Source: Candidatus Humimicrobiaceae bacterium (GTDB lineage: Bacteria > Patescibacteriota > Minisyncoccia > Minisyncoccales > DG-74-1). Taken from it: a DNA stretch of 64,000 bases. The position numbers were made by a program, and so were the translations under genes. How positions within the stretch are numbered: the first letter of the stretch is position 1; the number at the start of each line of letters is the position of its first letter. Shown here one piece after another: positions 7,330 through 42,419 of this stretch. The stretch is taken from contig DATKUR010000013.1 in NCBI GenBank assembly GCA_035530555.1, forward strand, positions 239 through 64,238, written 5' to 3'. A model generated the notes under the pieces. The model saw only the letters and a program-made list of their open reading frames with translations, was not told the origin of the DNA and did not search any database.

Positions 7330-7992
7330 TTACCACCAGGTCAATTTGTTTATTATTCTTGTTATTCTTAACCCCGAACAGGGCTTATCATTATCAAAAA
7401 TCAGTCGGTTGCTAATAAGGGTCGATTTCTCTTTTGCTAGAAAAATTTCTCTGACCGGACTCAGTCTCTTAACAAAAATTGGCGCCAAAGACGCCAAGAT
7501 CAAAATGCTAACGGTTTGAAACTGGCCGAAATAAACCGAAAGAAAAAAAGAGACAGCTAAGAAAAAAAATGTTCCGATTGAGGAGTTCCAAACTAGAGAT
7601 ATTAATATAAAAGGAATAACTGAAAAACCAGCTAGTTTTGGACTAAGAGCTAAAAAGGCGCCTAAAAAAGCGCCGACCCCCCGGCCTCCGGCAAACTTCA
7701 TAAAACAAGACCAATTATTACCCATAACCGCGGCTGCCCCACAAAGAGCCTGGAAAGGAAGAGATAGGCCAAAATTCTGAGCCAAGAAAACAGCCAAAAA
7801 ACCCTTGCCAATATCACAAAAACCGGTAGCTATCCCTTGCCAGACGCCAACATATCTAAAAACATTGGAGCCTGAACTTTTCCGCCAGCCAATTTTAAAA
7901 ATTTCCTTTCCTGAAATCTTAGAAAAAATAAAGCCGAAAGGAATCGAGCCCAAAAGATAACTAATAATGATAATGGCTATTGACAATGACAT
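7330..7992 (-). CDS. Divergent PlsY-family (acyl-phosphate:glycerol-3-phosphate acyltransferase-like) membrane protein
   Basis: PlsY-like N-terminus (IIIISYLLGSIPFGFIFSKISGKEIFKIG) and FAGGRGV motif. The GSGNxGxTN motif is degenerate (SSGSNVFRYVG). I prefer the internal ATG at 7992 (MSLSIAIII) because the track start at 8019 overlaps degV by 23 nt. Confidence 0.7.
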   Translation of the reverse strand: MSLSIAIIIISYLLGSIPFGFIFSKISGKEIFKIGWRKSSGSNVFRYVGVWQGIATGFCDIGKGFLAVFLAQNFGLSLPFQALCGAAAVMGNNWSCFMKFAGGRGVGAFLGAFLALSPKLAGFSVIPFILISLVWNSSIGTFFFLAVSFFLSVYFGQFQTVSILILASLAPIFVKRLSPVREIFLAKEKSTLISNRLIFDNDKPCSGLRITRIINKLTWW

Positions 7993-7996
7993 CTGA

Positions 7997-8899
7997 TTAG
8001 ATGGGCAAGCAGCCGGCAATAAGGGTGCCGGGACCAGAATTAGTGCCGATAATCGGCGGGACCAAAGAAATAAAAGCCACCTCTGAGGCCAGCTCTTTTT
8101 CCACTCTCTCTTTTAGTTGGTAAGCTAAATCAATGTTGTCAGTGTAATTTATTCCTATTCTTAATTTGCCGGATTTTTTGCTTTGATGCTTTAATTGATG
8201 GAAAATGGCTTTAAAAGTGTCCTTGGTCCAGAAATTAAAGCCAGTCAGACCAACCCTTCCCCTCTTTAAGCCAAGCATGGGCTGAACTCCTAAGGTTTTT
8301 AAAATCTTAAAGGCGGCCGCCTGTCGGGAAGACATTCGGCCAATTTTTTCTACCCAATAAGTTGTTTTCAAAAAGCCAAAAAATTTGATTTTCTCCTTGA
8401 GGCTATTTAAGGTTTTTAAAATTTCCTCTAAGTTCTTGCCTTCTTGAATAAGCTCAGCCGCTCTAAGGGTTAAAAGTCCTTCGGGGGTAGCCGCAGCCAG
8501 AGAATCAAAAATTTCAATTTTTGAAGGATCGGGCATAAATTCTTTTGCCTGCATAGCTGAGCTGTAAGTGGCTGATAATTTAGAAGACAAAGTAATCACC
8601 AGTACTTTTTCGAATTTATCTAAAGTTTTTTTATAAGCTTTTAAATAGTCTCCTGGCGAAGGCGCCGAAGTTTTTGGCCCGGCTTTGGTTTCTCTCATTA
8701 TCTGATATAAGTTCTTCTCGGGAAATTTATCCCATTCGGGAAAATATAATTTTATTCTAACAATCTCGATTTGAAAATCATTAATTATTTTTTCCGACAG
8801 AGCGCAAACATCATCAACAATAAGGCCGATCCTTCGGCTTTGGCCCTCGGCTGAGCTCGGTCGAACGCCCCCAAGGTTAGACTGAAATTTTTGAGGCAT
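7997..8899 (-). CDS. DegV-family fatty-acid-binding protein (FakB-like)
   Basis: 300 aa. DegV core motifs (GPKTSAPSPGDYLKAYKK, ITLSSKLSATYSSAMQA, GTNSGPGTLIAG). A 22-aa GC-rich N-terminal extension is absent from the paralog at 40255..41133. Confidence 0.85.
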   Translation of the reverse strand: MPQKFQSNLGGVRPSSAEGQSRRIGLIVDDVCALSEKIINDFQIEIVRIKLYFPEWDKFPEKNLYQIMRETKAGPKTSAPSPGDYLKAYKKTLDKFEKVLVITLSSKLSATYSSAMQAKEFMPDPSKIEIFDSLAAATPEGLLTLRAAELIQEGKNLEEILKTLNSLKEKIKFFGFLKTTYWVEKIGRMSSRQAAAFKILKTLGVQPMLGLKRGRVGLTGFNFWTKDTFKAIFHQLKHQSKKSGKLRIGINYTDNIDLAYQLKERVEKELASEVAFISLVPPIIGTNSGPGTLIAGCLPI

Positions 8900-8909
8900 G
8901 ATTTTTCTT

Positions 8910-9587
8910 TCAGTCGCCGTTAATTTTCTCGCCCAAAAAATAGCCTTTGAATCTGGGGATATTTTTTATTAGCAATAAAATTGTTCCAGCAGCTATTGGC
9001 AGAAAGATTTGAGGGTCATAAAAATAAAGAGCCACCAGACCGAAAAAGAGTCCGGCGAACCTGCCAGCCATTTGCTTACCAAAAATTGAAATAATGACCG
9101 ATATTTTTTTCCAGTTTATTTTTGTTTCAAAGCCGGTTTTTTCTAAGATGATCTGAGCCAAGATTGTGCAAAATACTACTGGTAAGCCCCATACTATAAG
9201 AGAGAAAATATCTAAATAAAGCAAAATCCCAATGAGACAGGCCGCGCCCCGACCGCCGGCAAATTTCAGAAAAATAGAGTAATTATGACCCAAAACAACA
9301 AAAAAACCGGCCATTATCAAGGCTAAAGAATTAAAAGGTAAAAAAAATTGGGCAAGAAAAATAGAAAAAGCGCCCTTAGCCATATCAACTATCAAAACAA
9401 CTAAAAACCCGACGACGGCCAGCTTCTTTGATTTTTCTTTTAAGGCCCGGACAGTATTCATTGCACCAACATTTCCCGAGCCAATCTTTCTAACATCCTG
9501 ACCGGTAAACTTTTTAACAAAAAAATAAGCCGTCGGAAAAGAACCAACGAGATAAGCAACGAGAGAAATTAAAAAGAAATTAACCAT
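8910..9587 (-). CDS. PlsY-family acyltransferase paralog
   Basis: 225 aa. LVAYLVGSFPTAYFFVKKFTGQDVRKIGSGNVGAMNTVR and FAGGRGAA motifs. Polytopic. Confidence 0.8.
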   Translation of the reverse strand: MVNFFLISLVAYLVGSFPTAYFFVKKFTGQDVRKIGSGNVGAMNTVRALKEKSKKLAVVGFLVVLIVDMAKGAFSIFLAQFFLPFNSLALIMAGFFVVLGHNYSIFLKFAGGRGAACLIGILLYLDIFSLIVWGLPVVFCTILAQIILEKTGFETKINWKKISVIISIFGKQMAGRFAGLFFGLVALYFYDPQIFLPIAAGTILLLIKNIPRFKGYFLGEKINGD

Positions 9588-11680: not shown

Positions 11681-11693
11681 AGTAAAGCTTGGG

Positions 11694-12110: not shown

Positions 12111-12137
12111 ATTACCGCCGGTTTACGCTGATATTTT

Positions 12138-13712: not shown

Positions 13713-13714
13713 AT

Positions 13715-14368
13715 TTAAGTAGCTAATTGCTTTAATTCTCCTATTATTTTGTCAGTGATTTTTTCTAAAACTTGCTGATATTCCAACGAATCTTCTGCTA
13801 AATTTTGTGCCAAATTAAATTCTTCATTAAAAAACAAAGGCTTGCTGACACTGACTTCAATGATTTTCTTTATTTTCAGTTTTCCCTTAGGAGGCATCGA
13901 TTCAAAAGTTCCTTTAATTCCGGCTGCTATTACTGACACTCCGGTCTTCAAAAAAATTTTGGCCGTCCCGAATCTTCCCTTTTGAATCTCGCCGTTGGTT
14001 GACCTCCTGCCCTCGGGATAAAGCACCAAAATATTGCCCTTTTTTAAAACTTGAATTGCTTGTTTCAGGACGTTCTCCCGAGACCGATCATTTTTCCTAT
14101 CTAAAGGAATGACTCCGGAAATAAAATAGATAGCCCGAATCAACCATTTTATTACTCCTTTAAATCCGTCAATTTGCCCGATGAAATGGAACTTTCTGGG
14201 AACGCAAAGGTAGCTATCTATTATTATATCAAGATAGCTGACATGATTGGAAACCAGGATAAAAGGAGCCATAGGAATATTTCCCAATCCTCTAACTTCT
14301 TTTATTAAGAGTCGGCCAACGATCGGTTTCAAGAAAATTTTACAAAACCAAGAAATGACCGGATTCAT
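13715..14368 (-). CDS. plsC: 1-acyl-sn-glycerol-3-phosphate acyltransferase
   Basis: 217 aa. HxxxxD motif (SNHVSYLDI) and YPEGRRS motif. Confidence 0.85.
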   Translation of the reverse strand: MNPVISWFCKIFLKPIVGRLLIKEVRGLGNIPMAPFILVSNHVSYLDIIIDSYLCVPRKFHFIGQIDGFKGVIKWLIRAIYFISGVIPLDRKNDRSRENVLKQAIQVLKKGNILVLYPEGRRSTNGEIQKGRFGTAKIFLKTGVSVIAAGIKGTFESMPPKGKLKIKKIIEVSVSKPLFFNEEFNLAQNLAEDSLEYQQVLEKITDKIIGELKQLAT

Positions 14369-15273: not shown

Positions 15274-15278
15274 TAAGG

Positions 15279-16296: not shown

Positions 16297-16310
16297 AAAT
16301 TTCTAATTAT

Positions 16311-24277: not shown

Positions 24278-24330
24278 TTTTTTATTTCGTTATTTAGTAT
24301 TTATAATATTAAGAAAATCGACCTTGACCT

Positions 24331-26630: not shown

Positions 26631-26634
26631 GGTT

Positions 26635-27165
26635 TTATTTTCTCCGACTTTTAATTTTCTTAATAATAATTCTAAACCAAGGGGTGTATTTTTTTGGATT
26701 TTTCTTAATATCGGTCTTTAGCTCCTTTAATTTAACCCATCGCCAGTCAGCTACTTCTTTTTTGTCAGGCCTAGGTTTTCCGTCAAATTTACCGAGAAAA
26801 ACATGGTCAAATTCGTGCTCAATAAGACCGCCGAGCTTTGCTTTATAGATAAAATTAAAAGCTTCTTTTAATTTACAATTAATCCCCATTTCTTCCTTCA
26901 ACCTTCTTTCAGCCGCCAATTTCGCTTCTTCCTTCGGTCTGGGGTGAGAACAACAGGTGTTTGTCCAAAGTCCCGGAGAGTGATATTTTGATTTGGCTCT
27001 TCTCTGAATTAGGGTTTCCCCTTTCTTATTAAACAAGAGTATAGAAAAAGCCCGATGCAGTTTTCCTGCCAGGTGGGCTTCCATTTTTTCTTCTGTCCCA
27101 ATGGTTTCGTTTTTCTTGTTAACTAAAACAATTTTTTCCACTTTTTTTCTAAGTCTTTCTTTCAA
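26635..27165 (-). CDS. idi: Isopentenyl-diphosphate delta-isomerase, type 1 (Nudix)
   Basis: 176 aa. LHRAFSILLFNKKGETLIQRRAKSKYHSPGLWTNTCCSHP closely mirrors the E. coli Idi core. Confidence 0.9.
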   Translation of the reverse strand: MKERLRKKVEKIVLVNKKNETIGTEEKMEAHLAGKLHRAFSILLFNKKGETLIQRRAKSKYHSPGLWTNTCCSHPRPKEEAKLAAERRLKEEMGINCKLKEAFNFIYKAKLGGLIEHEFDHVFLGKFDGKPRPDKKEVADWRWVKLKELKTDIKKNPKKYTPWFRIIIKKIKSRRK

Positions 27166-28246
27166 TTAAATAATTAACGAATTCTTCTAACTTAGCTTTT
27201 GCCTTTGACTCGGGCAAAAATTTTTCGGCATCCTGCCAGCTCTCTTTAATAATCTTTCGGGCCACTTTTCTGGCATAATCTATGCTACCATATTTTTTGA
27301 TGATTTCTATCGCCTTTTTTCTTTCTTTCGGATTATCGGTGTGCTTATCCAAAATTGACAATAGTCTTTTCTCGTCTTTTCGATTGGCTTTTTTCAAGGC
27401 ATGAATAACAATTAAGGTTCTTTTGCCTTCCTTAATATCGTTGCCAAAGCTCTTGCCAAATTTTTTTCTTTCTTTTCCTTCTAGGGCCAGATCCAAAATA
27501 TCGTCTTGAATCTGAAAGGCAACTCCGATGGCCTCGGCCATCTTACCGATCTTTTCGGCCAGTTTATCGCTTCCTCCTGAAAGAACAACTGCCAGCTTAG
27601 CAGCTAAACGAGAAAGACAGCCGGTCTTGAAAGCACACATTTGTAAATACTCTTTTTGGTTAACTGTTTTAGCTTTTCCCTGGTGCCAATAAATATCTGT
27701 ACCTTGGCCAAGATGAATATTAATCATGTCTTGGGCGTAAGCCTTGTAAACCTTAGCTAGAACTTTAGGTTTAAATTTATTTTTACTTTTTATTAAGATT
27801 ATCAAGGGTAGGAAATATAAAAAATTCCCAGCATTTACGGCTACGTCAACGCCAAAAATTCTATGCAAACAAGGTTTTCCTCTTCTCAGTTCCCCTTGGT
27901 CTTCAACGTCGTCGGTTATAATGGAGCCATCATGCGCCAGCTCGGGAATGATCAAAAAGTCTTTAACTTTTCTAATGTCGCCACCGACGGCTTCAGTAAT
28001 CAGTAAAAATAAAGCTGGCCGCCATCTTTTTCCGCCTCGGTCCAAAAATTCATAAATGGGCTTAATAAGAACTTCTTGGGCCGCTTTTTGACTATAAAAA
28101 TAGCGGGGCTTGCCAAAAGCAAATTCTAGCCATTTTTTGTTTGCCTTCCGGGGAAGATATTTTTCAATCAGTTTGTCAATTTCCGACTTTTTCTTTTCCA
28201 GATATTCCTCTATTCCTTGGTGTTTTATTTTAGCTTGATCGGGCAT
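27149..28246 (-). CDS. Polyprenyl diphosphate synthase (GGPP-synthase-like)
   Basis: 365 aa. First Asp-rich motif DDVED with small residues (G, S) at positions -5/-4. Second motif FQIQDDILD. Confidence 0.88.
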   Translation of the reverse strand: MPDQAKIKHQGIEEYLEKKKSEIDKLIEKYLPRKANKKWLEFAFGKPRYFYSQKAAQEVLIKPIYEFLDRGGKRWRPALFLLITEAVGGDIRKVKDFLIIPELAHDGSIITDDVEDQGELRRGKPCLHRIFGVDVAVNAGNFLYFLPLIILIKSKNKFKPKVLAKVYKAYAQDMINIHLGQGTDIYWHQGKAKTVNQKEYLQMCAFKTGCLSRLAAKLAVVLSGGSDKLAEKIGKMAEAIGVAFQIQDDILDLALEGKERKKFGKSFGNDIKEGKRTLIVIHALKKANRKDEKRLLSILDKHTDNPKERKKAIEIIKKYGSIDYARKVARKIIKESWQDAEKFLPESKAKAKLEEFVNYLIERKT

Positions 28247-28250
28247 AGAT

Positions 28251-29393
28251 TTAGCGTTTACTGCAGGTATGGTTTCTATAAACCAAAATAAGCTTGAGGA
28301 ACTTAAAAATGTTTTTTCTTAAATTTGGCTTTGCTAAAAAATCTGGAAGGGCAGAAAGGCTTTTCAGATAAAAAATATCTTCCCCGGCTTTCTCTAGAAC
28401 CTCTCCAACTTCGTTCAGGCTTTTATTATCAAGTGAATACAAAACTTCCTGGGCTAGAAACAGTTTTTCATTAAAACAAGAAAGGAATTCAATTTTTGAA
28501 GGGTAAGAATCGACATCTTTGGAAAGAATACACTTGGCCGCCTGCTCTCCGGCGATCATGGCATTGCCAATTCCCCCACCCGTTATCGGATCAACCATAG
28601 CACCGGCATCGCCAACCAACAGCGCATTGTCTTTGACTAATTTTATGGATTTTTTCACCAGCGGAATTACGCCGCTGATATTTTTCAAAAAGCGGTAATT
28701 GCCCAAATCTTTTCTAATGGTGTTTTCCATAAAATCTTCAAGTTGTGCCCGAAGATTTATCTTTCTCCCAGAGCCCAAGCCGATATTAGCCGTATTTCTT
28801 GATTTTGGGAAAAACCAGGCATAACCTGAAGGGAATCTTTCTTGGTCAAAATAAAGTTTCATGGTATGACAATCCATTTCTTTTTCCACTTCAACCAAAT
28901 ATTGAAGACAGGGATAAATCGCTACTTTTTCTTGAAAAACCTTTCTTCTAATAATTGAAGCAGGGCCGTCTGCGCCAATAAGATATTTTGATTCAAACTC
29001 CTCACCGTCTTGGGTCTTAACCCTCCAAGTTTCACCTTCTTTCTTGACATCGGTTACTCTTTTTTGAAGACGAATTCTTGCCTGGCATTGGCTGGCTAAG
29101 AATTTTTCAAAATTTACCCTGTCTAAAATATAGCCCCCTTCTTTTGCCGAAAGATTGGCTGTTTTACCGTTTGGCAAAACTGCTTGACTCTTATCAACGG
29201 TAGTTGAAATCCAGTTTGGATCAGGTTTAATCCCAAGTCTGTCTAAAAAATATCTGGCTAATCCTTCGGCACACTGGACCGGCTTACCGATCTCCTCTTT
29301 CTGATCTAAGATCAAAGCATTGTTTAAGTATTTTCCGCAGACCAAACCGCCAGGACCGGCTCCAACAATGATTGTTTCAAAAAGACTTCCCAT
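28251..29393 (-). CDS. Geranylgeranyl reductase family flavoprotein
   Basis: 380 aa. N-terminal FAD motif IIVGAGPGGLVCG. GDAGAMVDPITGGGIGNAM is typical of GGR/digeranylgeranylglycerophospholipid reductases. Confidence 0.85.
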   Translation of the reverse strand: MGSLFETIIVGAGPGGLVCGKYLNNALILDQKEEIGKPVQCAEGLARYFLDRLGIKPDPNWISTTVDKSQAVLPNGKTANLSAKEGGYILDRVNFEKFLASQCQARIRLQKRVTDVKKEGETWRVKTQDGEEFESKYLIGADGPASIIRRKVFQEKVAIYPCLQYLVEVEKEMDCHTMKLYFDQERFPSGYAWFFPKSRNTANIGLGSGRKINLRAQLEDFMENTIRKDLGNYRFLKNISGVIPLVKKSIKLVKDNALLVGDAGAMVDPITGGGIGNAMIAGEQAAKCILSKDVDSYPSKIEFLSCFNEKLFLAQEVLYSLDNKSLNEVGEVLEKAGEDIFYLKSLSALPDFLAKPNLRKNIFKFLKLILVYRNHTCSKR

Positions 29394-29418
29394 ATAGTTT
29401 TATATAAAAAACACAATA

Positions 29419-30237
29419 TTACGAATAAATAGTTGCGAGAGATATCACAATATAAGAAAAAACCGCATAGGCATCAAAAATCCGATAATTCTTTTTAAAC
29501 ATAAGGAGTAAAAGAAAAAAAATAGTTAGAATAAGAAAGGGAAGTAAAAACTTTGAGAAAAAGAAAAAAAAGACTGGAAAAAGAACAAGAGGGTAGAAAA
29601 AGGCCAGGTATTTTAAAAGGTTTTCTGATTTTTTATAGCCAAGAAAGCAGACGGTAGTTTGCAGGCCAGCCCGGGAATCTGATTGATAGTCTTCTAAGTG
29701 GTTTCTTGTTTCCAGCATGGTTGATAAATAGAAAATAGAAAAAGCAATTAAATAGTGGGGGAGGGTCAGTTCTGGGCTAAAAATTAAGAAGGGGAAAATA
29801 AAAATTAAGGCTCCGGCAAAAAGACCATGAGAAATCAAGTCTAAAAAAGGCCTTGATTTCATTCTCAAAGGAGGGGCGGAATAAAAAAACCCGATCAAGC
29901 CGGCAATCAAAACGAACAAAAATATTTCTGTTCCAAAATAGCCCGACAAAAATAAAGCTAAAATGCCTGGCGAGACCGAAAGAAAAAAATTCTTCTTATT
30001 CTGAACCAAAAGACTCTTCACCTCTCTTTTTTCCCCGTCTTCCTTGATATCAAAGAAATTATTAACTGAAAACCCAAAGGCTAAAAGTAAAACACCGATG
30101 ATTGAGAAAAGTAAAATGTCCAAAAGAGGAAATAAAAAGCCTCGAGCAAGAATAAATCCTAAAATACCCAGCCCAAAATAAGCTCGCCAGTCTTTCATTC
30201 GATAATACTTAAAAAAAGACTTTAAATTAATTGACAT
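29419..30237 (-). CDS. UbiA-superfamily membrane prenyltransferase
   Basis: 272 aa, polytopic. Asp-rich motifs NNFFDIKED and NHLEDYQSD. Confidence 0.8.
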   Translation of the reverse strand: MSINLKSFFKYYRMKDWRAYFGLGILGFILARGFLFPLLDILLFSIIGVLLLAFGFSVNNFFDIKEDGEKREVKSLLVQNKKNFFLSVSPGILALFLSGYFGTEIFLFVLIAGLIGFFYSAPPLRMKSRPFLDLISHGLFAGALIFIFPFLIFSPELTLPHYLIAFSIFYLSTMLETRNHLEDYQSDSRAGLQTTVCFLGYKKSENLLKYLAFFYPLVLFPVFFFFFSKFLLPFLILTIFFLLLLMFKKNYRIFDAYAVFSYIVISLATIYS

Positions 30238-30977
30238 TAAATAGCTAAGCCGCCGTCGATATTAACCACTTCGCCAGTAATGAAGCCGGCCTCGTCTGAA
30301 GCTAGAAAGGCAACCAGACTGGCAACCTCTTCCGGTTTGCCAAGCCGCCCCAAGGAAGTCAATTTTAAAACCGCCTGCTTAACCTCTTGAGGTACTGTTT
30401 CTGTCAATTTTGATTCAATAAATCCTGGAGCTACGGCATTAACCCTTACCCCTAACTTCCCGACTTCTTTGGCTAAGGATTTGGTAAAACCAATAACGCC
30501 GGCTTTGGCGGCGGCATAATTCGTCTGACCGAAATTACCTCTTTGGCCTACCAGAGAAGAAATACTAATAATCTTCCCCTGGTTTTGAATGAGTAAGGGT
30601 AAGGCAGCTTTTGAGCAATTAAAAACTCCCGTTAAATCAACGTCAATCACTCTTTGCCATTCTTCTTTGGTCATTTTGGCTAAAGTTCGGTCAGCACAAA
30701 TTCCGGCATTATTTACCAAAACATCCAGCCGACCAAATTCTTTATGAATTTCCTGGGCCATTTCTTCTACTTCTTTCAGCTTTGAAACGTCAGCAAAAAA
30801 ATACCTTGCTTCTATTGCTTGCTTTTCAATTTCTTCCTTAACTTTCTTCAAGTTCTCTTCCTGGCTTTGAATATCGTTTAAGGCAATTTTCCCTCCCAAA
30901 GAAGCAAATTTTAAAGCAATGGCTCTGCCAATTCCCTGAGAAGCGCCGGTAATCAAAATAACTTTATCTTTGAACAT
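30237..30977 (-). CDS. fabG: 3-oxoacyl reductase (SDR, FabG-like)
   Basis: 246 aa. TGASQGIGRAIA, NNAG and YAAAKAG (YxxxK). Confidence 0.85.
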   Translation of the reverse strand: MFKDKVILITGASQGIGRAIALKFASLGGKIALNDIQSQEENLKKVKEEIEKQAIEARYFFADVSKLKEVEEMAQEIHKEFGRLDVLVNNAGICADRTLAKMTKEEWQRVIDVDLTGVFNCSKAALPLLIQNQGKIISISSLVGQRGNFGQTNYAAAKAGVIGFTKSLAKEVGKLGVRVNAVAPGFIESKLTETVPQEVKQAVLKLTSLGRLGKPEEVASLVAFLASDEAGFITGEVVNIDGGLAI

Positions 30978-34191: not shown

Positions 34192-34689
34192 ATGGAAACT
34201 TATTTTTTGCCAAGGGAGATGAGGTCGGAATTAAGAAAAATTTGGGGCATTCCTCTTTTTAATGGGAAAAAAAAGGTTCTTAATAAATTTCAGCAGTTTG
34301 CCCAAAAAAAGAGATTTAAAAAGGTAATTACCGTAGGCGATTATTGTTCTCTTACTTTACCTTCTGATATTAAAATTTTTGACGGAAAAATAAAGAGGGG
34401 GAAAGTAAGAAAGCTGCCAAAGTTCTCTCTTTATTGTAGCAATCCGCCAGGAACCATTCAAAAGGGAGTCTGGCTGATTATTAAAAAAGCGATTCAAAAT
34501 AAGGAAAATATTTTTATTGAGGGAGAAGAAGATCTTTTGGTTATCCCTACGGTCTTGCTTTCAGAAAAAAATACGGCTGTAATCTATGGCTTCCCCGATA
34601 AGGGAGTTTGTTTGATTGAAGTTTCGCCCCGCGTAAAAAAAACTTTTAAAGAACTCCTTAAGAAGTTTTCCTTAAAATGTGGCAAGTGA
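34192..34689 (+). CDS. DUF359-family protein, probable archaeal-type GTP-dependent dephospho-CoA kinase
   Basis: 165 aa. Family-like motifs VITVGDYCS, FDGKIKRG, NPPGTIQ, IEGEEDLLVIPTVLL and VIYGFPDKGVCLIEV. AAGGA SD lies 7 nt upstream of the ATG. Confidence 0.7.
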   Translation: METYFLPREMRSELRKIWGIPLFNGKKKVLNKFQQFAQKKRFKKVITVGDYCSLTLPSDIKIFDGKIKRGKVRKLPKFSLYCSNPPGTIQKGVWLIIKKAIQNKENIFIEGEEDLLVIPTVLLSEKNTAVIYGFPDKGVCLIEVSPRVKKTFKELLKKFSLKCGK

Positions 34690-35788
34690 CGCTTCCGCCG
34701 GTTCCGCCAACGTTATGGCAGAGGCCGATTTTAGGATTACCTTTAACTTGCCGCTTGCCGCATTCTCCCCTTAATTGATTAACGATCTCGTAAACTTGGG
34801 CTAATCCGGTGGCAGAGATCGGATGACCCTTAGCTTTTAAACCGCCGGAAGGGTTAACCGGCAACCGGCCGTCCAAATTAACCTTTCCTTGCCGGATTAA
34901 TTCTGCTCCTTTCCCGCTTTCGGCAAAACCCAAGTCTTCATAAGAGAATAATTCAACCGAAGTAAAGGCGTCGTGAATTTCAGCCACTTGAATATCTTCC
35001 GGCTTTATTTTAGCTTCTTTGTACGCCTGCTCGGCCGCCAACTCAGTCGCCTGGAAATGCCAAGGCTCTTTTCTGTTAAAGGTTAAAAGATAATCAGTAG
35101 CGAAACCAGAACCTAAAACTTCGATGTCAGTTTTTTCTTTTGTTAAAATTGCTGCGGCCCCTCCGTTGACCGATAAAGAGCAATCCATTAAACGAAAGGG
35201 AGAAGCAACAACTGGCGATTTCTTAATTTCTTCTAAAGAAACTTTCCTTTGATAGTAATAAGCCTTAGGGTTTAAGGCAGCGTTTTGGTGGTTTTTATAA
35301 GCAATCAAGGCCAAATCATCCATAGTGGCGCCATATTTCAGCATATATTGCTGCCAGACTAGGGCATTTTGAACCGGAAATAGAGTACCTTCTGGCTGCT
35401 CAATTACTCTCTCGGTGGCTGATAATATCCAATGAGCAGTCACCTCACCTTTGTTGTCAACTAGCTTTTCACCGGAAACAATTAAAATGTTATTAAACTT
35501 TTCCAGTTGTAAAGCCGTCCAGAGAGCCACTCCACCACCGGCACAAACCGAGGGTGTTTCAATGATCGGGACATTTGTCTTAAATAAATCAGCCAGAAAG
35601 GAAACCTTATGAGTCTGATGTTCGCTAAAACCTTCGGCGCTGGAAATACTGGTTAAAACAATTGCCTCAATCTGAGAAATCCTCATTTTGGCGCCTTCTA
35701 AGGCCTCAAGAGCGGCGACAGTTGCGAACTGCCACCAGGGTTCTTGAGAATAATCAAATTTTGTCATCCCTACTCCTTTGATATACAT
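34658..35788 (-). CDS. Thiolase-like acetyl-CoA acetyltransferase (archaeal/SCP-x type)
   Basis: 376 aa. Nucleophile context TPSVCAGGGVAL. C-terminal GLCHNVGGTGGS. Confidence 0.85.
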   Translation of the reverse strand: MYIKGVGMTKFDYSQEPWWQFATVAALEALEGAKMRISQIEAIVLTSISSAEGFSEHQTHKVSFLADLFKTNVPIIETPSVCAGGGVALWTALQLEKFNNILIVSGEKLVDNKGEVTAHWILSATERVIEQPEGTLFPVQNALVWQQYMLKYGATMDDLALIAYKNHQNAALNPKAYYYQRKVSLEEIKKSPVVASPFRLMDCSLSVNGGAAAILTKEKTDIEVLGSGFATDYLLTFNRKEPWHFQATELAAEQAYKEAKIKPEDIQVAEIHDAFTSVELFSYEDLGFAESGKGAELIRQGKVNLDGRLPVNPSGGLKAKGHPISATGLAQVYEIVNQLRGECGKRQVKGNPKIGLCHNVGGTGGSVTCHILRKTS

Positions 35789-35803: not shown

Positions 35804-37597
35804 TTATAAGGACGTCCATCCGCTAATTAAAGTCCCGGGGCCCGTATGAGTACATATTACGGGCGAGGCTAAACCAATAAAGGGCACCTCAGCTTTTATT
35901 TCTTTCAACATCTGTCTTAGTTTCTCTGCTCCTTCTGGATTATCGGCATGTTGGATTATAACTCTAATTTTTTTCCCTTCTGATCTGACCTTTCGGCTTT
36001 CTTTTGAGATTTTTTTAAAAAGTGCTTCAGCCATATCTTTAGCAAAAGCTATTCCTCCCTCAGTTACTGCCCCATTTTTGATAGTTATTAAAGGATGAAG
36101 ATTTATTCTTTTTATTCTTCTTATCCAATTTGCCTGGGATTTGCTGGCTCTACCGCCAGCTTCTATCCATTTAGGGTCCTCAAAAATGACGTGGAGATGA
36201 GTCTGAGGAATCATTTTTTTTAACTCATCTAGAATATCATTAATCTCTCTTTGCCCTTGAATCATCTCAATAGCTTTCAAAACCAAGAGAGTTTGACTGG
36301 CCGCAGCCTGTAAAGAATCTAAAACATAAACTTTTTCCTTTTCCTCTTTCTCTAGCATTTCCCTCGCCTGGCAGGCCGAATTATAACAGCCAGAAACTTT
36401 GGAGGTTATGCTCAAACATAAAACCTTTTCAAACTTTCCTAACTGTTTTTTAAAAGCCGCCAAATAAAATTTTGGGGCAGGCTGAGAAGTCTTCGGAAAA
36501 GTTTTAATCTTTTGCCTATCAGCTTCTCTCATTTTTTGAAAAATATCTTCTCCGGGCAAATTCTCTCCCTCTGGCCAGTTAACAATGACATCAACTGTTT
36601 CAACCTGATATCTTTCTAAAACCTTCTCGGGCAATAAAACAATATTTCCTTCGGTAACAACGCCAATGGAAACTTTTCTGACTGATTCCTCGCCGGCCAC
36701 CTCTTTGGCCATATCTTCAAATCTTAAGTCTTGAATTTGCCCCATATTTCTTATTAGCTTTTTTACTTCATCGGGATAGTCCGTATGGATATGAACCTTG
36801 GCTTTGCTGCCAATCTGGACAATATCTATGGAATTACCTAGTTTCTTTAATTTTTCCTTGATCTCTTCTTCTCCAAACCTAGGGTTCTTGACCAAGGCAA
36901 TAATTTCGTAACGATGGGATAAAACCTGAACAAACCTCTTGATTTTTTCTGAGGGCCTTTCTTCTTTTTTTCTTTCTTTTCTTTCGCCCTCCAGGGCATC
37001 CAAATAACTTTCCAGAATTATTAAAAAACCCAAACCCCCGGCATCAACCACGTTGGCCTTTCTGAAAATTTCCATCTTCTCCCGGGTAGCCAAAAGAGCT
37101 TCTCTGGCTTTTTCGGTAGCTGTTTTTAAGATTTTGGTGATATTTTTTTCTTTTTCTGCTTCCTTCTTAAAGGTTAAAGCTGTTGCGTCAATAACGTCTA
37201 AAATTGTTCCTTCTTTAGGGCTTTGGATAGATCGCCGGGCCCGTTCAGCTCCTCCCTCAAAGGCAATAGATAGTTTTTTGGCATCAACCGGGTTTTTATC
37301 AAGTAAAGGCAGAAAACTGGCTAAAAAACCGACGTAAATCACGCCGGCATTGCCCTGGGCAGTAGTTAAAGCTCCATCCAAGGCTGCCTCAGAAACTTCT
37401 TTTAAATCTTTAAAGTCCTTTTTATCAATGGCTTCTTTTATCCCTGATAAGGTTTTAGCCAGATTGCTTCCGGTATCTTGGTCCGGAACAGGAAAGACGT
37501 TTATTTTATTGATCTGCTCTTTGTTCTTTTCAATCTTCTCATAGGACAAAAGGAGCATCTTCTTTAGTTCAGCTTGGCTAAGGTATTCCATGGCCAA
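35804..37597 (-). CDS. DhaL/DAK2 (FakA-type kinase) domain fused to a full DegV (FakB-type) domain
   Basis: 597 aa. The N-terminus has FPVPDQDTGSNLAKTL and AQGNAGVIYV (DAK2). Residues from about 310 to the end align throughout with the DegV at 40255..41133 (FQKMREA, KTSQPAPK, YNSACQA, DPKWIE, GKKIRV, GPGTLISG). Confidence 0.85.
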   Translation of the reverse strand: MAMEYLSQAELKKMLLLSYEKIEKNKEQINKINVFPVPDQDTGSNLAKTLSGIKEAIDKKDFKDLKEVSEAALDGALTTAQGNAGVIYVGFLASFLPLLDKNPVDAKKLSIAFEGGAERARRSIQSPKEGTILDVIDATALTFKKEAEKEKNITKILKTATEKAREALLATREKMEIFRKANVVDAGGLGFLIILESYLDALEGERKERKKEERPSEKIKRFVQVLSHRYEIIALVKNPRFGEEEIKEKLKKLGNSIDIVQIGSKAKVHIHTDYPDEVKKLIRNMGQIQDLRFEDMAKEVAGEESVRKVSIGVVTEGNIVLLPEKVLERYQVETVDVIVNWPEGENLPGEDIFQKMREADRQKIKTFPKTSQPAPKFYLAAFKKQLGKFEKVLCLSITSKVSGCYNSACQAREMLEKEEKEKVYVLDSLQAAASQTLLVLKAIEMIQGQREINDILDELKKMIPQTHLHVIFEDPKWIEAGGRASKSQANWIRRIKRINLHPLITIKNGAVTEGGIAFAKDMAEALFKKISKESRKVRSEGKKIRVIIQHADNPEGAEKLRQMLKEIKAEVPFIGLASPVICTHTGPGTLISGWTSL

Positions 37598-38287
37598 CTA
37601 TTTAAATTTTTCCTCTAGCTCTTTTAGAATTTTAGCTGCTAACTCTTTTCCGCCTAAGCCAAAAGAAAGACCCAAGGCAACTGAAATGGTAATTGCTACA
37701 CCGATGAAAATAACTAAAATCAAGGAGGGTGTTATTTTAAGCTGGTAGAGAATGGCCAAAATAGCAAAAAGCCAGATTGCCCAACGGATTGCCTTGCCTG
37801 AAAATCGCGAATAAGTTATTTTTTCCTTCTTCAGGGTACCAACCACAATCTTTTGAGAAAAATCAGCCAAAAAAACAGCCACAAGAAAAATTAAAATAGC
37901 AATAAAAATATTAGGATAATAACCAACCACTTTCCATAAAAATTGGCTGAAGGAAGTCAAGCCCAGGATTCTAGCGCTTAGAATTTCAGCAGCTATCGTC
38001 AAAAAAAGGATAACAAAAAACCATCTTACTATTTCGCCAAAAAACTTCGGAGCATTAAGCCGTGTATCTATTCTAGACAGAGATTCTTCTATGCCCATGC
38101 CCTTTAAAACTTGATTCAATCTAATTTTGCCCAGAAAATCGGCGGCTCTTTTTCCTAGCCATTGAGAAATAAGCCAGCCAACCAAGAAAAACAGAAAGGC
38201 TCCAAGGGCACAAAGCGGATAAGAAGCTGGAATTTGTATTAAGTATTTATAAACTTCTTCCCACATAAATAATTTATACGCTACCAT
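37598..38287 (-). CDS. Polytopic membrane protein (conserved-TM-helix type)
   Basis: 229 aa with 4-5 hydrophobic helices. No catalytic motif recognised. Confidence 0.55.
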   Translation of the reverse strand: MVAYKLFMWEEVYKYLIQIPASYPLCALGAFLFFLVGWLISQWLGKRAADFLGKIRLNQVLKGMGIEESLSRIDTRLNAPKFFGEIVRWFFVILFLTIAAEILSARILGLTSFSQFLWKVVGYYPNIFIAILIFLVAVFLADFSQKIVVGTLKKEKITYSRFSGKAIRWAIWLFAILAILYQLKITPSLILVIFIGVAITISVALGLSFGLGGKELAAKILKELEEKFK

Positions 38288-38838
38288 TTAGCGCGATTAA
38301 GCTTCAAATGATAACCGATTCTATTAGCAACTATATGTAATAAAAAGGTTAAAATAAAAAGGGTTATCCAGATTATTATCTCAATTTTTAAAATCGCTGT
38401 CAAGAAAATAGCCGAACCTATAACATAATTTGTCTGGTCGAATGGGATAAATCTGGCGCCCGGCGGCATCTTCAATCTTCGCTTGATAAAAGCAAAAAGT
38501 AGGTCGCCGAAAATTGCGCCGAGCGAAATCAAAAAGCCGAAAAGAAAAATATTAATCTGTTTATAATCTAATAGGGAAATTCTTTGGATTGCTGGAAATT
38601 GATAAAGATAACCCTGGACCAAGACCACCAAAAAACCGACACTCATCCCCAGTATTGCTCCCCGCCAGGATTTATGACTGCCGAGAATCGGCTGGCCTAA
38701 AAAATTTTTTCCGAAATCAATATCTTTATCTAAAAAATTAAAAAGGTTGGCCTTTCTGGCTAAAGGTGGGGCCATATTAGTAAAATAAGCGGGCAGGAAA
38801 AAGTAGAGACAAGATAAGATATATGTTAGAATACCCAT
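38281..38838 (-). CDS. carS: CarS-like (CDP-archaeol synthase family, formerly DUF46) membrane cytidylyltransferase homolog
   Basis: 185 aa. FFLPAYFTNMAPPLA, DIDFGKNFLGQPILGSHKSWRGAILG and GDLLFAFIKRRLKMPPGARFIPFDQTNY match the conserved blocks I recall for archaeal CarS. Confidence 0.72.
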   Translation of the reverse strand: MGILTYILSCLYFFLPAYFTNMAPPLARKANLFNFLDKDIDFGKNFLGQPILGSHKSWRGAILGMSVGFLVVLVQGYLYQFPAIQRISLLDYKQINIFLFGFLISLGAIFGDLLFAFIKRRLKMPPGARFIPFDQTNYVIGSAIFLTAILKIEIIIWITLFILTFLLHIVANRIGYHLKLNRAKW

Positions 38839-39600
38839 ATGAAATGCGATTTACACTGCCATACTGGCTATTCTTACGATAGCACAGCTGAGCCAGAAGA
38901 GATGATTGAGGCGGCGCTTCAAAAAGGGATAAACTGTCTGGCCATTTGCGACCACGGAGAAATTAAAGGCGCTCAGAAAGCAATCGAATACGCCAAAGAT
39001 AAGCCTATTTTAATTATACCGGGAATTGAAATAAAAAGTAAGGAAGGAGATATTTTGGGATTAAACATAAAAGAAGTTATTCCGAACAAATTATCAGCTA
39101 GTGAGACAATTAAAAAAATAAAGGGCTTAGGAGGGCTGGTAGTTATTCCCCATCCTTTTGGCTGGTCTTGCTCTTTTAGAGGAAACTTAGAGGACTTAAT
39201 TTCTAAAATAGACTGGTCCGAAGAGCTTCGTTCTTCTCGCGCTGAACCCAGTGATAACTGGGCGAAGAGGGAGAAGAAAACGAGGTTTTCTGCGACCGCC
39301 TCAGCTGGGGCCTTGGCAATTGAGATTTTAAATGCTTCAATATTCGGCCGTGGCAACAAAAAAGCTCTGATTTTCTCCCAAAAATACAACCTTTCTGTAA
39401 CAGCAGGATCCGACGCCCATTTCCCGAATTTTGTCGGCAGGGTCTATTTAGAAATTCCGGGCGATAATCTTTCTGTAGAAGAAGTTTTAAATCAGATAAA
39501 AAAAGGCGCTGCTAAAATCCATGGGAGAGAAGCTGACTGTTTGGAAAAAGCTGTCGATCATGTCAAAAGAAATATCGCCAGACTTAAAAATTTGATATAA
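38839..39600 (+). CDS. PHP-domain metal-dependent phosphoesterase carrying an in-frame insertion of about 33 aa
   Basis: 253 aa. MKCDLHCHTGYSYDS, AICDHG, VIPHPF and TAGSDAH motifs. The start codon abuts the carS start codon (CAT|ATG at 38836..38841). Confidence 0.85.
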   Translation: MKCDLHCHTGYSYDSTAEPEEMIEAALQKGINCLAICDHGEIKGAQKAIEYAKDKPILIIPGIEIKSKEGDILGLNIKEVIPNKLSASETIKKIKGLGGLVVIPHPFGWSCSFRGNLEDLISKIDWSEELRSSRAEPSDNWAKREKKTRFSATASAGALAIEILNASIFGRGNKKALIFSQKYNLSVTAGSDAHFPNFVGRVYLEIPGDNLSVEEVLNQIKKGAAKIHGREADCLEKAVDHVKRNIARLKNLI

Positions 39601-39681
39601 CGAAGCTTCGATTCGTTAAAATTGACCGTTCGATGAACTTTTAATTTACATTGTCTCTCGTTGAGTTTTCAGTTTAATTCT

Positions 39682-40281
39682 ATGTTAGAGGAAAAGAGAG
39701 AAAAATTTAAAAAAATTTCCAGCTGGACAGGAAATATTTTTTCTAAGTCTGGCTTAACGCCCAACCAATATACTCTAATCTCTTTTGTTTTTGTTTTAGT
39801 TGCTTTTTATTTTTTACTTAAGGAAAGGTTGGTTTGGGCCCTAATCTTCTTTTTATTGGCTACCTTTCTAGATTTTATTGACGGGGCAGTGGCAAAATTT
39901 TTGCAAAAAGAAACGAAAAAAGGTGCCTATTTGGACACCATTTGCGACCGCTACGTCGAGGGTATTATTTTATTAGGTTTTTTATTCTTATCGTTGTCTG
40001 ATTTTTTTCTACCGGCAAAAATCTGGATTTTTCTAGCTTTTTTCGGTTCTTTGATGACAACCTATGCTAAGGCAGCGGCTAAAGAAAAAGAGCTGGTAGG
40101 CCAAGAATTAAAAAAGGGCCTTTTGGGCCGAGCCGAAAGAATAATTTTAATTAGCCTGGCAATATCTCTTGGTATTTTTAATTTTTCCTGGATAATTTAT
40201 CCGATTGTTTTCCTGGCTATTTTTTCAAATATTACCGTTTTCCAAAGGATTTTTTTAGCTCTCACACCAAGCAACAATTAG
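39682..40281 (+). CDS. CDP-alcohol phosphatidyltransferase
   Basis: Motif DFIDGAVAKFLQKETKKGAYLDTICDRY, which fits DG(x2)A[RK](x8)G(x3)D(x3)D. I prefer ATG 39682 over the TTG at 39661. Confidence 0.85.
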   Translation: MLEEKREKFKKISSWTGNIFSKSGLTPNQYTLISFVFVLVAFYFLLKERLVWALIFFLLATFLDFIDGAVAKFLQKETKKGAYLDTICDRYVEGIILLGFLFLSLSDFFLPAKIWIFLAFFGSLMTTYAKAAAKEKELVGQELKKGLLGRAERIILISLAISLGIFNFSWIIYPIVFLAIFSNITVFQRIFLALTPSNN

Positions 40282-41133
40282 AGAATCCGGTCCAGTCAAA
40301 ACGCCAAGAATATTGTCTATCAAATTAAGGAAGGTGACTTCGGCTCCGCTTAACTCTTTTTCAACCGCCTCTTCCAATCTCTGGGCTCCTTCTAAGTTAT
40401 CACCATGGGTAATTGCTACCCTGATTTTTTTACCTTGTTTCCGCAATTTCTCAGTTTTTTCTTTTAACTCTTGGAAAAGGGCACTAGGAATATCTCTAGC
40501 GCCTTTTCTTATACCAACTGCCTTTATTTTTCCGTTTTTAATACCGAGTATGGGCCGGAGACCAATTTTTTCCATTTTCCTTATCCAGTCAGCCAAAAAA
40601 TGGGGAATTCTACCCGAGGACTCTATCCATTTTGGGTCTTTAACCATTGCAGCTAAGCAAATTTTTGGCCGGAATGATTCCAGCTCTTTTGTAATTTCCT
40701 CAATTTCTTTCCCGCCTTCAACCAAATCTACTGCCTTTAAAACTAAAAGTCCTAAGCCGGCGCTTCCGCTTAGAGAATCAATAATAAAAATTTTTGCTTT
40801 CTCCCCCGGTTCTAAAAAATTTTTTGCCTGACAGGCAGAATTATAGGTTCCTGAATGGACCGAAGTAATAGTAATGGTTATGATTTTTTCAAACTTGGTA
40901 AATTGTTTTTTAAAAATCTCTAAAAAATCCTTTGGCGAAGGTTGAGAAGTTTTTCCGAAGCTCTTAATCCCTGCTTTTTCAGCTTCTCTCATCTTTTGAA
41001 ACGTATTTTCCCCAGGAAAATTCTCAAGATCCGGCCAATCCATCTTGAGAGGAGCAACTTCAATCTGATATTTTTCAATTATTTCTTTGGGCAAATCTGC
41101 CGCCTCATCAACAACTAAGCCAATTTTTTTCAT
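40255..41133 (-). CDS. DegV-family fatty-acid-binding protein (FakB-like)
   Basis: 292 aa. KTSQPSPKDFLEIFKK and ITSVHSGTYNSACQA. Confidence 0.88.
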   Translation of the reverse strand: MKKIGLVVDEAADLPKEIIEKYQIEVAPLKMDWPDLENFPGENTFQKMREAEKAGIKSFGKTSQPSPKDFLEIFKKQFTKFEKIITITITSVHSGTYNSACQAKNFLEPGEKAKIFIIDSLSGSAGLGLLVLKAVDLVEGGKEIEEITKELESFRPKICLAAMVKDPKWIESSGRIPHFLADWIRKMEKIGLRPILGIKNGKIKAVGIRKGARDIPSALFQELKEKTEKLRKQGKKIRVAITHGDNLEGAQRLEEAVEKELSGAEVTFLNLIDNILGVLTGPDSLIVAWCES

Positions 41134-41136
41134 GTT

Positions 41137-41820
41137 TTAGATTATTTGCCAGTCTCGAGCATTGGCGATTTCTAATAATTTTTTGTCCGGCTCAACAGCC
41201 ACCGGGTTACCAACTAATTCTAGTATTGGTAAATCAAAGACGCTATCTGAATAGGCAAAACTCTCTTTAAAATCCATCACAAGGTTATTGTCAGTTAAAA
41301 ATTGCTTTACTTTTTCGGCTTTTCCCTGGGCAAAACAAAGAGGAGGAATTATCCTGCCGGAAAACTTATTTCTAATAATTTCCAGCTCGGTACCAACGGC
41401 AAAATCAATATTGAGGCGACTTGAAAAAACTTTAATTAAGTCCTGGAAACTGCCGGAAGTTAAAATAATTAAATAGCCACTTTCTTGATGCCTTTTAAGT
41501 CTTTCAAGCACATTCTTTTTTAAAGTTGGTAAAAGATAATCATCGGTTAACCAGTCAAAAATTTCTTTTGCTTTTTTAGTGTCTATCCCTTTCATTAGCC
41601 GGGCCATATCTTCGCCCCATCTTTGGTAATATTTTTTAGTTGAGATAAGACCTATTTTCCAAAAAGGAGTTAAGGCAAAGTTACTGGTTAAAAAACAAAA
41701 AATAGAAAAGAGCCTTTCTCTCTTTTTTAAATAATACTTCAGCAACCCAGACCAAAAATGACTGCTGACTAACGTCCCGTCGAAATCAAAAAGAGCAATT
41801 TTGACCCTAGAATCCTTCAT
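41137..41820 (-). CDS. HAD-IB family hydrolase
   Basis: 227 aa. Canonical motif I ALFDFDGTLV. Capped HAD-IB-like architecture. Confidence 0.8.
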   Translation of the reverse strand: MKDSRVKIALFDFDGTLVSSHFWSGLLKYYLKKRERLFSIFCFLTSNFALTPFWKIGLISTKKYYQRWGEDMARLMKGIDTKKAKEIFDWLTDDYLLPTLKKNVLERLKRHQESGYLIILTSGSFQDLIKVFSSRLNIDFAVGTELEIIRNKFSGRIIPPLCFAQGKAEKVKQFLTDNNLVMDFKESFAYSDSVFDLPILELVGNPVAVEPDKKLLEIANARDWQII

Positions 41821-42419
41821 TATGTTGTTTTACTTAGTTTAAATTTTGGCTCCCTGCCTTCTCTAAGCCTTTGAATGTTTTCTCGGTGAGTCCACCAGAT
41901 TAAAGCAAATAATACAAGGCCAAGGATAAAATAAGCTAAGGAAAAAGAATTAAACCAAAGAATCAAAGGCAAGAAAGAAACCAGTAAAAGATTGGTAAAA
42001 CTCATTATTTGAAAAAGGGCTAAAATCAAAAGCCAAATTAAAATCAAAATCAAGAATTTCTGCCAACCCAAAAGAACAAATAAAACCCCGACGGTGGTGG
42101 CCACCCCTTTGCCTCCTTTAAAATTCAGCCAGACCGGGAAAATATGGCCTAGTACCGAAGCGATAGCTACCGGAGCTATTTGCCAGTCAAGAAATAAAAA
42201 CTTTGTAGCTAAAAAAATCGGGATTACTCCTTTCAAAACATCTAAGACTCCGACTAATAACCCCCATTTTAGACCTAAGCCCCGCACAACGTTCGTTCCG
42301 CCAATATTCCCTGAGCCAACTTTTTTAATATCAACACCTTTGAATTTGGAAATTAGAAAGCCCCAAGGAATGGAACCCAGGAGATAACCAAAAATAATTA
42401 ATAAAGCTGAATTAAGCAT
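41820..42419 (-). CDS. plsY: Acyl-phosphate:glycerol-3-phosphate acyltransferase, canonical copy
   Basis: 199 aa. FGYLLGSIPWGFLISKFKGVDIKKVGSGNIGGTNVVR and FKGGKGVAT. Confidence 0.9.
   Translation of the reverse strand: MLNSALLIIFGYLLGSIPWGFLISKFKGVDIKKVGSGNIGGTNVVRGLGLKWGLLVGVLDVLKGVIPIFLATKFLFLDWQIAPVAIASVLGHIFPVWLNFKGGKGVATTVGVLFVLLGWQKFLILILIWLLILALFQIMSFTNLLLVSFLPLILWFNSFSLAYFILGLVLFALIWWTHRENIQRLREGREPKFKLSKTT

Follow-up and report, generated by a model that had tools for sequence, protein, structure and literature searches.

The question raised by a gene at 35804..37597 in a 64,000-nucleotide stretch of DNA (hereafter the window) from a Candidatus Humimicrobiaceae bacterium of the Patescibacteriota (assembly GCA_035530555.1, contig DATKUR010000013.1) is whether a single polypeptide can combine the two components of fatty acid kinase (Fak), the kinase FakA and the fatty-acid-binding FakB protein of the DegV family, which are separate proteins in the characterised system. 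A first-pass annotation had proposed that the gene fuses a kinase domain to a genuine DegV domain, with the caveat that the C-terminal domain of canonical FakA (FakA_C) is itself distantly DegV-like, so that an ordinary FakA orthologue might have been mistaken for a fusion. The analysis described here leads to the view that the product of this gene is probably a fatty acid kinase complete in a single polypeptide. The domain content supports the proposed union of kinase and carrier in one chain, which would be expected to act as a kinase by itself, and the fused protein is not an ordinary FakA orthologue.

The likely start codon is the ATG at 37591, two codons past the TTG that opens the reading frame, which gives a protein of 595 aa as in the public calls of a 99%-identical protein; homologues of 595-598 aa carry the same three Pfam domains. 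The two N-terminal motifs on which a DAK2-type assignment had been based, FPVPDQDTGSNL and AQGNAGVIYV, are both there, and Pfam Dak2 matches residues 36-198 with 108 bits. In Foldseek comparisons this domain superposes on the crystal structures of S. aureus FakA_N with TM-scores of 0.94-0.96 and root-mean-square deviations (rmsd) of 1.0-2.0 Å. The two-part layout first proposed was right in that the Dak2 and DegV domains are both real, but it left out the FakA middle (M) domain that lies between them. The full-length AlphaFold2 (AF2) model (mean predicted local distance difference test score, pLDDT, 93; predicted TM-score, pTM, 0.70) contains three well-folded domains separated by two low-confidence linkers (residues 204-229 and 302-307). 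An artefact of assembly or gene calling was ruled out, since more than 120 clusters with 71-99% identity have the same length and domains and the fusion also occurs in closed chromosomes.

The identity of the C-terminal part is what separates a fusion from a canonical FakA. Pfam DegV (PF02645) matches residues 311-590 with 152.9 bits (cut-off 27) over profile positions 2-273 of 280, and the TIGR00762 DegV profile scores 166.1 bits against a cut-off of 99.7, while the Pfam scan of the fused protein gave no match to FakA-like_C (PF13684) at E <= 0.01. The YloV profile TIGR03599 aligns only over positions 1-377 of 530 and scores below its cut-off, and the NCBIfam FakA equivalog NF038248 reaches 137 against a cut-off of 975. 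In phmmer comparisons with PDB sequences, FakA (7w7h_A) is matched over residues 11-353 only and the C-terminal part aligns from end to end with TM841, T. thermophilus DegV and S. aureus FakB1. The AlphaFold model of the DegV domain alone (pLDDT 96.4, pTM 0.93), which includes the two-lobed DegV fold and the insertions that roof the fatty-acid tunnel, aligns with 29 FakB/DegV entries at Z 27.0-31.3 (rmsd 2.3-3.0 Å over 253-273 residues), as against Z 13.5, rmsd 4.3 Å and 7% identity for S. aureus FakA_C (6w6b); DhaK, at Z 15-16, is the next-best structural match after DegV. FakA_C has been described as a shortened DegV relative of about 220 aa that binds FakB and has neither the three tunnel-roofing insertions nor the conserved Arg (PMC9136124), and in S. 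suis it is 9% identical to a prototype DegV (PMC10848957). When a profile of the fused DegV domains was aligned by hhalign with a profile of 22 canonical FakA_C domains, the two shared 12% identity over 170 columns (probability 94.6%), with the first ~63 DegV columns unmatched and no Arg in FakA_C at the column of R483.

The residues by which FakB holds its ligand point in the same direction. Alignment with S. aureus FakB1 maps T62 to T370, S95 to S402, R173 to R483 and H270 to H584, so that all four ligand and catalysis residues are retained, a point that the first-pass annotation had marked for checking. The two findings that had been named in advance as able to overturn the fusion were a C-terminal half closer to FakA_C than to DegV/FakB and a loss of pocket residues; both comparisons came out on the side of DegV (153 bits with Pfam, 166 against 99.7 with TIGR00762, no FakA_C match), and the fusion hypothesis survived them. 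The alignment with the free DegV protein encoded at 40255..41133 also held, at 47% identity over 277 aa with 3 gaps (E 7e-89). Five of the six sequence blocks said to be shared (FQKMREA, KTSQPxPK, YNSACQA, DPKWIE and GKKIRV) are exact in both proteins, but the sixth, GPGTL, belongs to the fused protein only and reads GPDSL in the free one. A further difference concerns the basic residue by which FakB docks on FakA_C (R202 of S. suis FakB2, a residue described as conserved (PMC10848957), or R205 of S. aureus FakB1). It is Arg or Lys in all nine FakBs encoded beside a canonical fakA, and in this fused domain it is Phe, or Ala in the phmmer alignment, and so non-basic either way in what is an approximate, loop-level alignment. 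With the same loop-level approximation, the column holds Phe in seven, Ile in three, Trp in one and Arg in one of the fused domains from the candidate phyla radiation (CPR), and Phe in 18 and Arg in 10 of the other fused domains.

Conservation was followed in 123 aligned fused homologues, clustered at 50% identity. The Mg-binding pair D39 and D41, the G82-N83-x-G85 motif of the kinase site and the middle-domain metal-site residues H269 and H271 are invariant in all 123. At the FakB-type carboxylate site T370 is Thr or Ser in 119, S402 is kept in 120 and H584 in 95, and the catalytic R483 is kept in 120. With conservation at the kinase site as well as at the FakB site, selection therefore acts on each half as would be expected if kinase and carrier were both functional. 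In 102 of the 123 the last conserved Asp of the middle domain and the first of DegV are spaced 17-22 residues apart, and the tether is therefore short and constrained in length.

The fused family proved to be large, old and widely spread, so that the fusion, first regarded as a matter for a survey of CPR genomes, is not specific to them. When 1.8 billion cluster representatives were searched exhaustively and without a profile, 724 proteins were returned at E <= 1e-30, and about 118 of the best 150 were full-length matches of ~600 aa with identities down to 26%. Among 77 members scanned with Pfam, Dak2 and FakA-like_M were found in 76 and DegV in 71, the remainder being N-terminal fragments. 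With one genome taken per GTDB species, the full-length fused gene turned up in more than 15 groups of phylum level, which rules out a CPR-specific invention. They were found in Gemmatimonadota/Longimicrobiales, Coxiellaceae, Bacteroidota, Fidelibacterota/Neomarinimicrobiota, Spirochaetota, Acidobacteriota/Aminicenantes, Thermodesulfobacteriota, Krumholzibacteriota and Eisenbacteria, Thermoleophilia, Xanthomonadales (including the cultured Lysobacter daejeonensis and Pseudoxanthomonas sp. Root630) and some Bacillota, including Vagococcus salmoninarum. At ten loci tested with Pfam the best match of the C-terminal domain was DegV (159-250 bits) and not FakA_C in every case, and tblastn sorted all fetched loci into two clean types, N and M domains followed by DegV (~600 aa) or by FakA_C (~550 aa). 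The present protein has the traits of the fused family: the three-domain order, a single reading frame for ~600 aa, and a place among fused proteins in trees of both its N+M and its DegV parts. Within the Patescibacteria the distribution is patchy, with any Fak match in 6 of 301 sampled genomes and the gene itself in 11 of 41 relatives belonging mostly to the same order, and universality in this order or phylum is thereby ruled out as well.

Several genomes appear to manage with the fused protein as their only DegV domain. In three other Patescibacteria (68-88% complete) it holds the sole DegV and the sole Dak2 domain found, and in two closed chromosomes, one from Longimicrobiales (4.8 Mb) and one from Xanthomonadales (2.9 Mb), no other DegV domain and no FakA_C was found. 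In Lysobacter and Pseudoxanthomonas the fusion is accompanied by one free DegV, without FakA_C. The cultured Firmicute V. salmoninarum NCFB 2777 (L022 / G303) carries a canonical FakA (558 aa), four free DegVs and a fused Dak2-M-DegV gene, and is a convenient organism in which to compare the canonical and fused designs.

The genome studied here encodes one Dak2 domain and three DegV domains, and FakA_C (PF13684) was not found in its 643 kb, which are estimated to be 95% complete. Of the two free paralogues, DegV2 (40255..41133) keeps the Thr, Ser and Arg of the ligand site, has Leu at the His position and has Lys at the column of the FakA_C-docking Arg; DegV3 (7997..8899) likewise keeps Thr, Ser and Arg and has Asn at the His position. 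Their origin was traced in two trees, both unrooted because DhaL and FakA_C are too divergent (12% profile identity) to root them. In the N+M tree (90 rows) there are a fused Patescibacteria clade of 12 rows with a support of 95 in the Shimodaira-Hasegawa-like approximate likelihood ratio test (SH-aLRT) and a multi-phylum fused clade of 44 rows with a support of 98. Most canonical FakAs form another block, and three label changes are needed, only one of them forced by well-supported branches. The DegV tree recovers the same major clades, and the two halves have therefore evolved as one unit. It also places both free DegVs of the window, together with similar free DegVs and the Parcubacteria fused domains, in one clade of 20 rows (SH-aLRT 98), with the other fused domains and the canonical FakBs outside it. 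It follows that the free copies arose by lineage-specific duplication, and it is this duplication that accounts for the 47% identity of DegV2 to the fused domain; the likeness had been taken as a sign of a real fusion, which the fusion is, but what it reflects is duplication within one clade and not a recent fusion event. In a relative of the same order, G314 (G314:C5:27520-34413), two tandem free DegV genes directly follow the fused gene and a third lies ~2.5 kb upstream, a locus that looks like a snapshot of free carriers arising by duplication of the 3' part. P0137, which might have been the 3' part of a fused gene split in two, is a genuine stand-alone free DegV, 61% identical to the fused domain and encoded beside a TetR gene, and that reading was rejected. 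A three-residue insertion at residues 487-500 of the fused protein recurs in the same region of both free DegVs and is specific to this Parcubacteria sub-lineage; it is present in most of the sub-lineage's aligned fused domains and free DegVs, is absent from the more distant Patescibacteria fusions L005 and L006, and sits in the counterpart of FakB loop 1, the loop that touches FakA_C in the S. suis complex.

These patterns also allow a more far-reaching, and on balance doubtful, reading of the history of the system. The single-chain form might be ancestral and FakA_C a decayed tethered DegV that lost its tunnel after free duplicates took over carriage; the present Parcubacteria lineage would then replay an intermediate stage, with an intact tethered carrier and recent free duplicates that each lie beside their own PlsY paralogue. 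On the same tentative reading the enzyme could perhaps also be an obligatory bridge from ACP (acyl carrier protein)-less, CoA-based acyl-chain synthesis to PlsY, and not a scavenging device.

The expected user of the kinase product, PlsY, is linked to the fused gene well beyond this genome. A plsY gene lies directly downstream of the fused gene in loci from Patescibacteria, Cytophagia, Spirochaetota and Xanthomonadales, and one canonical Patescibacteria operon has the order fakA-fakB-plsY. The association goes further in four-domain PlsY-Dak2-M-DegV proteins, of which there are 3-5 representatives, with all four domains confirmed in P0148, P0149 and P0160 from other Patescibacteria. These three have 838-868 aa with the PlsY membrane domain at the N-terminus, and one of them is named only 'glycerol-3-phosphate acyltransferase' at NCBI. 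In the window, the PlsY gene at 41820..42419 is two genes away from DegV2 (Table 1). Searches of this genome found neither PlsX nor any member of the ACP family. Given this result and the three PlsY genes, the fused kinase is the only recognisable source of acyl-phosphate, and it is probably the sole source in this genome.

The gene sits in a ~40-kb minus-strand lipid cluster. The segments 23234-30237 and 38281-40281 of the cluster hold lipid genes of archaeal type, for mevalonate-pathway enzymes, a polyprenyl synthase, a geranylgeranyl reductase, a UbiA prenyltransferase, a CarS-like cytidylyltransferase and a CDP-alcohol transferase, and a B12-radical-SAM (S-adenosylmethionine) enzyme is encoded in the cluster too. 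Candidate genes for acyl-chain synthesis are also present, for acetyl-CoA carboxylase (ACC), thiolase/DUF35 and FabG-, FabZ- and FabK-like proteins. They may represent an ACP-independent synthesis of acyl chains, which would need the kinase to reach PlsY. More specifically, the minus-strand segments 9604-16829, 30237-30977 and 34658-35788 contain ACC parts (carboxyltransferase, biotin ligase, biotin carboxyl carrier protein and biotin carboxylase), FabK-like (NMO) and FabZ/FabA-like genes, a FabG-like short-chain dehydrogenase/reductase and an archaeal-type thiolase. Each of the three PlsY genes of the 643-kb genome is near a DegV domain gene. The gene directly upstream of the kinase (37598-38287, minus strand), whose stop codon abuts the TTG of the kinase reading frame, encodes 229 aa with a sole match, to the conserved transmembrane helix of mechanosensitive channels.

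Table 1. Coordinates in the window of the fused gene, the parts of its product, the free DegV paralogues and the acyltransferase genes.
Feature	Position	Strand	Details
Whole open reading frame, probable fused fatty acid kinase	35804..37597	-	597 codons from TTG; stop codon 35804-35806
FakA_N / Dak2 (DhaL-type) ATP-Mg domain	36989..37576	-	residues 8-203
Flexible N-M linker	36911..36988	-	residues 204-229, low pLDDT; AF2 block pLDDT 76/59/73
FakA-like middle (dimerisation / metal-site) domain	36698..36910	-	residues 230-300; Pfam FakA-like_M 49.7 bits
Short M-DegV linker	36668..36697	-	residues 301-310; pLDDT < 50 at 302-307
Complete DegV/FakB-type fatty-acid-binding domain, in the place of FakA_C	35807..36667	-	residues 311-597
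Free DegV paralogue 2 (DegV2), 292 aa	40255..41133	-	47% identical to fused domain
Free DegV paralogue 3 (DegV3), 300 aa	7997..8899	-	36-38% identical to fused domain; PlsY paralogues on both sides
PlsY (acyl-phosphate:glycerol-3-phosphate acyltransferase), presumed consumer of the kinase product	41820..42419	-	Pfam G3P_acyltransf 172 bits
Divergent PlsY paralogue, upstream of DegV3	8910..9587	-	Pfam G3P_acyltransf 100.6 bits
Divergent PlsY paralogue, downstream of DegV3	7330..8019	-	Pfam G3P_acyltransf 101.1 bits
PlsC-type acyltransferase (second acylation step)	13715..14368	-	Pfam Acyltransferase 83.8 bits

What the analysis establishes directly is the gene fusion itself, with the identity of its domains, the conservation of their residues, their distribution and the gene linkage. 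How catalysis proceeds, whether in cis or in trans, and what the free DegVs do are inferred from homology, conservation and gene linkage. In the mechanism proposed, the fatty acid would lie in a FakB-type tunnel of the C-terminal DegV domain, where T370, S402 and H584 would bind its carboxylate, and the N-terminal Dak2 domain would bind ATP and two Mg ions via D39 and D41. The middle domain would dimerise the protein and supply a His-His (plus Glu) metal site, the tethered DegV would present the carboxylate to the Dak2 domain of its own chain or of the other protomer in the dimer, and R483 would stabilise the acyl-phosphate as it forms, for subsequent use by PlsY at the membrane. The covalent tether, with its short linker, would thereby take over the part that the docking domain FakA_C plays in the canonical enzyme in recruiting free FakB. 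FakA_N and the middle domain have been reported to retain catalytic activity when FakA_C, whose role is only to bind FakB, is missing (PMC9136124), and a tethered carrier without a docking domain is therefore mechanistically plausible. The two free DegVs, with a PlsY gene next to each, probably serve as further acyl carriers that the same kinase module charges in trans.

Some observations weigh against a self-contained single-chain kinase. The Cys of the canonical Cys-His-His metal site (C240 in S. aureus) is Glu in this protein (E231, codon 36905-36907); the column has Cys in 94 and Glu in 29 of the 123 homologues, and all but one of these 29 are among the closest homologues by search rank. 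The AF2 model, a monomer (single chain, pTM 0.70), does not reveal how the DegV pocket meets the ATP site. The retention of two free DegVs means that the tethered domain is not the sole possible carrier, and these free carriers would need to be recruited without FakA_C. At 95% completeness, the missing PlsX, ACP and canonical FakA count as not found and are not proven absent. Finally, literature searches found no published biochemistry on any member of the fused family.

The alternative that survives best, though it is unlikely, is that the fused DegV domain is not the primary carrier and serves mainly as a docking or hand-off module for the free DegVs, a functional counterpart of FakA_C to which they might pass the fatty acid, as in the S. 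suis model. Such a role would fit the 1-3 free DegVs kept by this genome and by most of its fusion-bearing relatives, the basic residue of DegV2 at the docking column, and the remote homology of FakA_C to DegV at the same chain position (hhalign probability 94.6%), and Shi et al. have proposed that fatty acid is transferred from FakB to a FakA_C/FakA_N pocket (PMC10848957). However, there are genomes with the fusion and no free DegV, two closed chromosomes among them, the fused domain has the catalytic Arg that FakA_C is without and the full tunnel-forming fold, and among the three DegV domains of this genome only the fused one has the full Thr/Ser/Arg/His set. It is more improbable still that the substrate is some other carboxylate lipid, such as an isoprenoid-derived or modified acid from the surrounding lipid supercluster. 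The mevalonate, prenyl, CarS-like and B12-radical-SAM genes of the ~40-kb cluster are what make this worth considering, but all solved DegV proteins bind ordinary fatty acids (going by structure titles), the partner that recurs across phyla is PlsY, a user of acyl-phosphate, and the same fusion is found in genomes of unrelated phyla. That the protein is an ordinary orthologue of FakA, with a C-terminal domain only resembling DegV, is scarcely credible and was rejected on sequence, profile and structure tests: canonical FakA_C does have a DegV-related EDD fold (PMC9136124, PMC10848957) and some fused homologues give a weak secondary FakA-like_C match overlapping the DegV match, but this protein has a 153-bit DegV match and none to FakA-like_C, a C-terminal domain of ~290 aa where FakA_C has ~220, Z of 27-31 to FakB against 13.5 to 6w6b and 47% identity to a free DegV against 12% profile identity to FakA_C, and tblastn parts canonical from fused loci cleanly.

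With the single-chain kinase as the preferred reading, the fused enzyme represents an uncharacterised design of a known system. No paper characterising a fused Dak2-M-DegV enzyme was found, and a 2023 review treats FakAB as a two-component, Gram-positive strategy (PMC10146087). The only mention found is a passing remark in a preprint that Dak2-DegV fusions had been reported, which may refer to canonical YloV/FakA (bioRxiv 10.1101/2021.02.16.431466). The mechanism of Fak is itself disputed between direct phosphorylation of the FakB-bound fatty acid (PMC9136124, PMC11617999) and a hand-off to a FakA_C/FakA_N pocket (PMC10848957). A natural enzyme without FakA_C and with the FakB domain on the same chain would mean that docking through FakA_C is dispensable in nature, and it would offer a one-protein system for trapping the active complex. 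The fusion would also answer where acyl-phosphate for PlsY comes from in ultrasmall bacteria that have no PlsX or ACP, and would extend Fak-type activation to many diderm phyla. In NCBI records the fused proteins are named 'DegV family protein', an annotation that hides the kinase half.

Among the closest known systems, a first comparison is with the two-component FakA and FakB of Bacillota (S. aureus, S. suis and S. pneumoniae; PDB 7W7H, 7RM7, 6W6B and 5UTO). The fused protein resembles them in the Asp pair of the Dak2 domain (TM-score 0.94-0.96), in the His-x-His of the middle domain, and in the Thr/Ser/His carboxylate site and catalytic Arg of the DegV fold, and in both cases PlsY is the expected user of the product. 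The beads-on-a-string arrangement and a flexible linker are likewise found in S. aureus FakA (PMC9136124). Unlike the two-component system, the fused protein has no FakA_C and has a complete FakB-type domain attached instead, the metal-site Cys is replaced by Glu and the FakB docking Arg is lost, and no PlsX or ACP was found here that would connect it with acyl-ACP.

A second comparison is with the single-chain ATP-dependent dihydroxyacetone (DHA) kinases, which work as homodimers. In Citrobacter freundii DAK and human TKFC (PDB 1UN8/1UN9) a substrate domain of the EDD fold and a DhaL domain are joined in one chain, as they are here. However, the order there is K-L and in the fused protein L-M-DegV, the DHA kinases have no middle domain, and they bind a small triose substrate through a covalent link to His, whereas the fused protein would be predicted to bury a fatty acid. 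A third comparison is with the PlsY-Dak2-M-DegV proteins P0148, P0149 and P0160, which contain the same Dak2-M-DegV unit with 33-38% identity over its whole length; they differ in carrying the PlsY domain at their own N-terminus, whereas PlsY is encoded separately, in three copies, in the present window.

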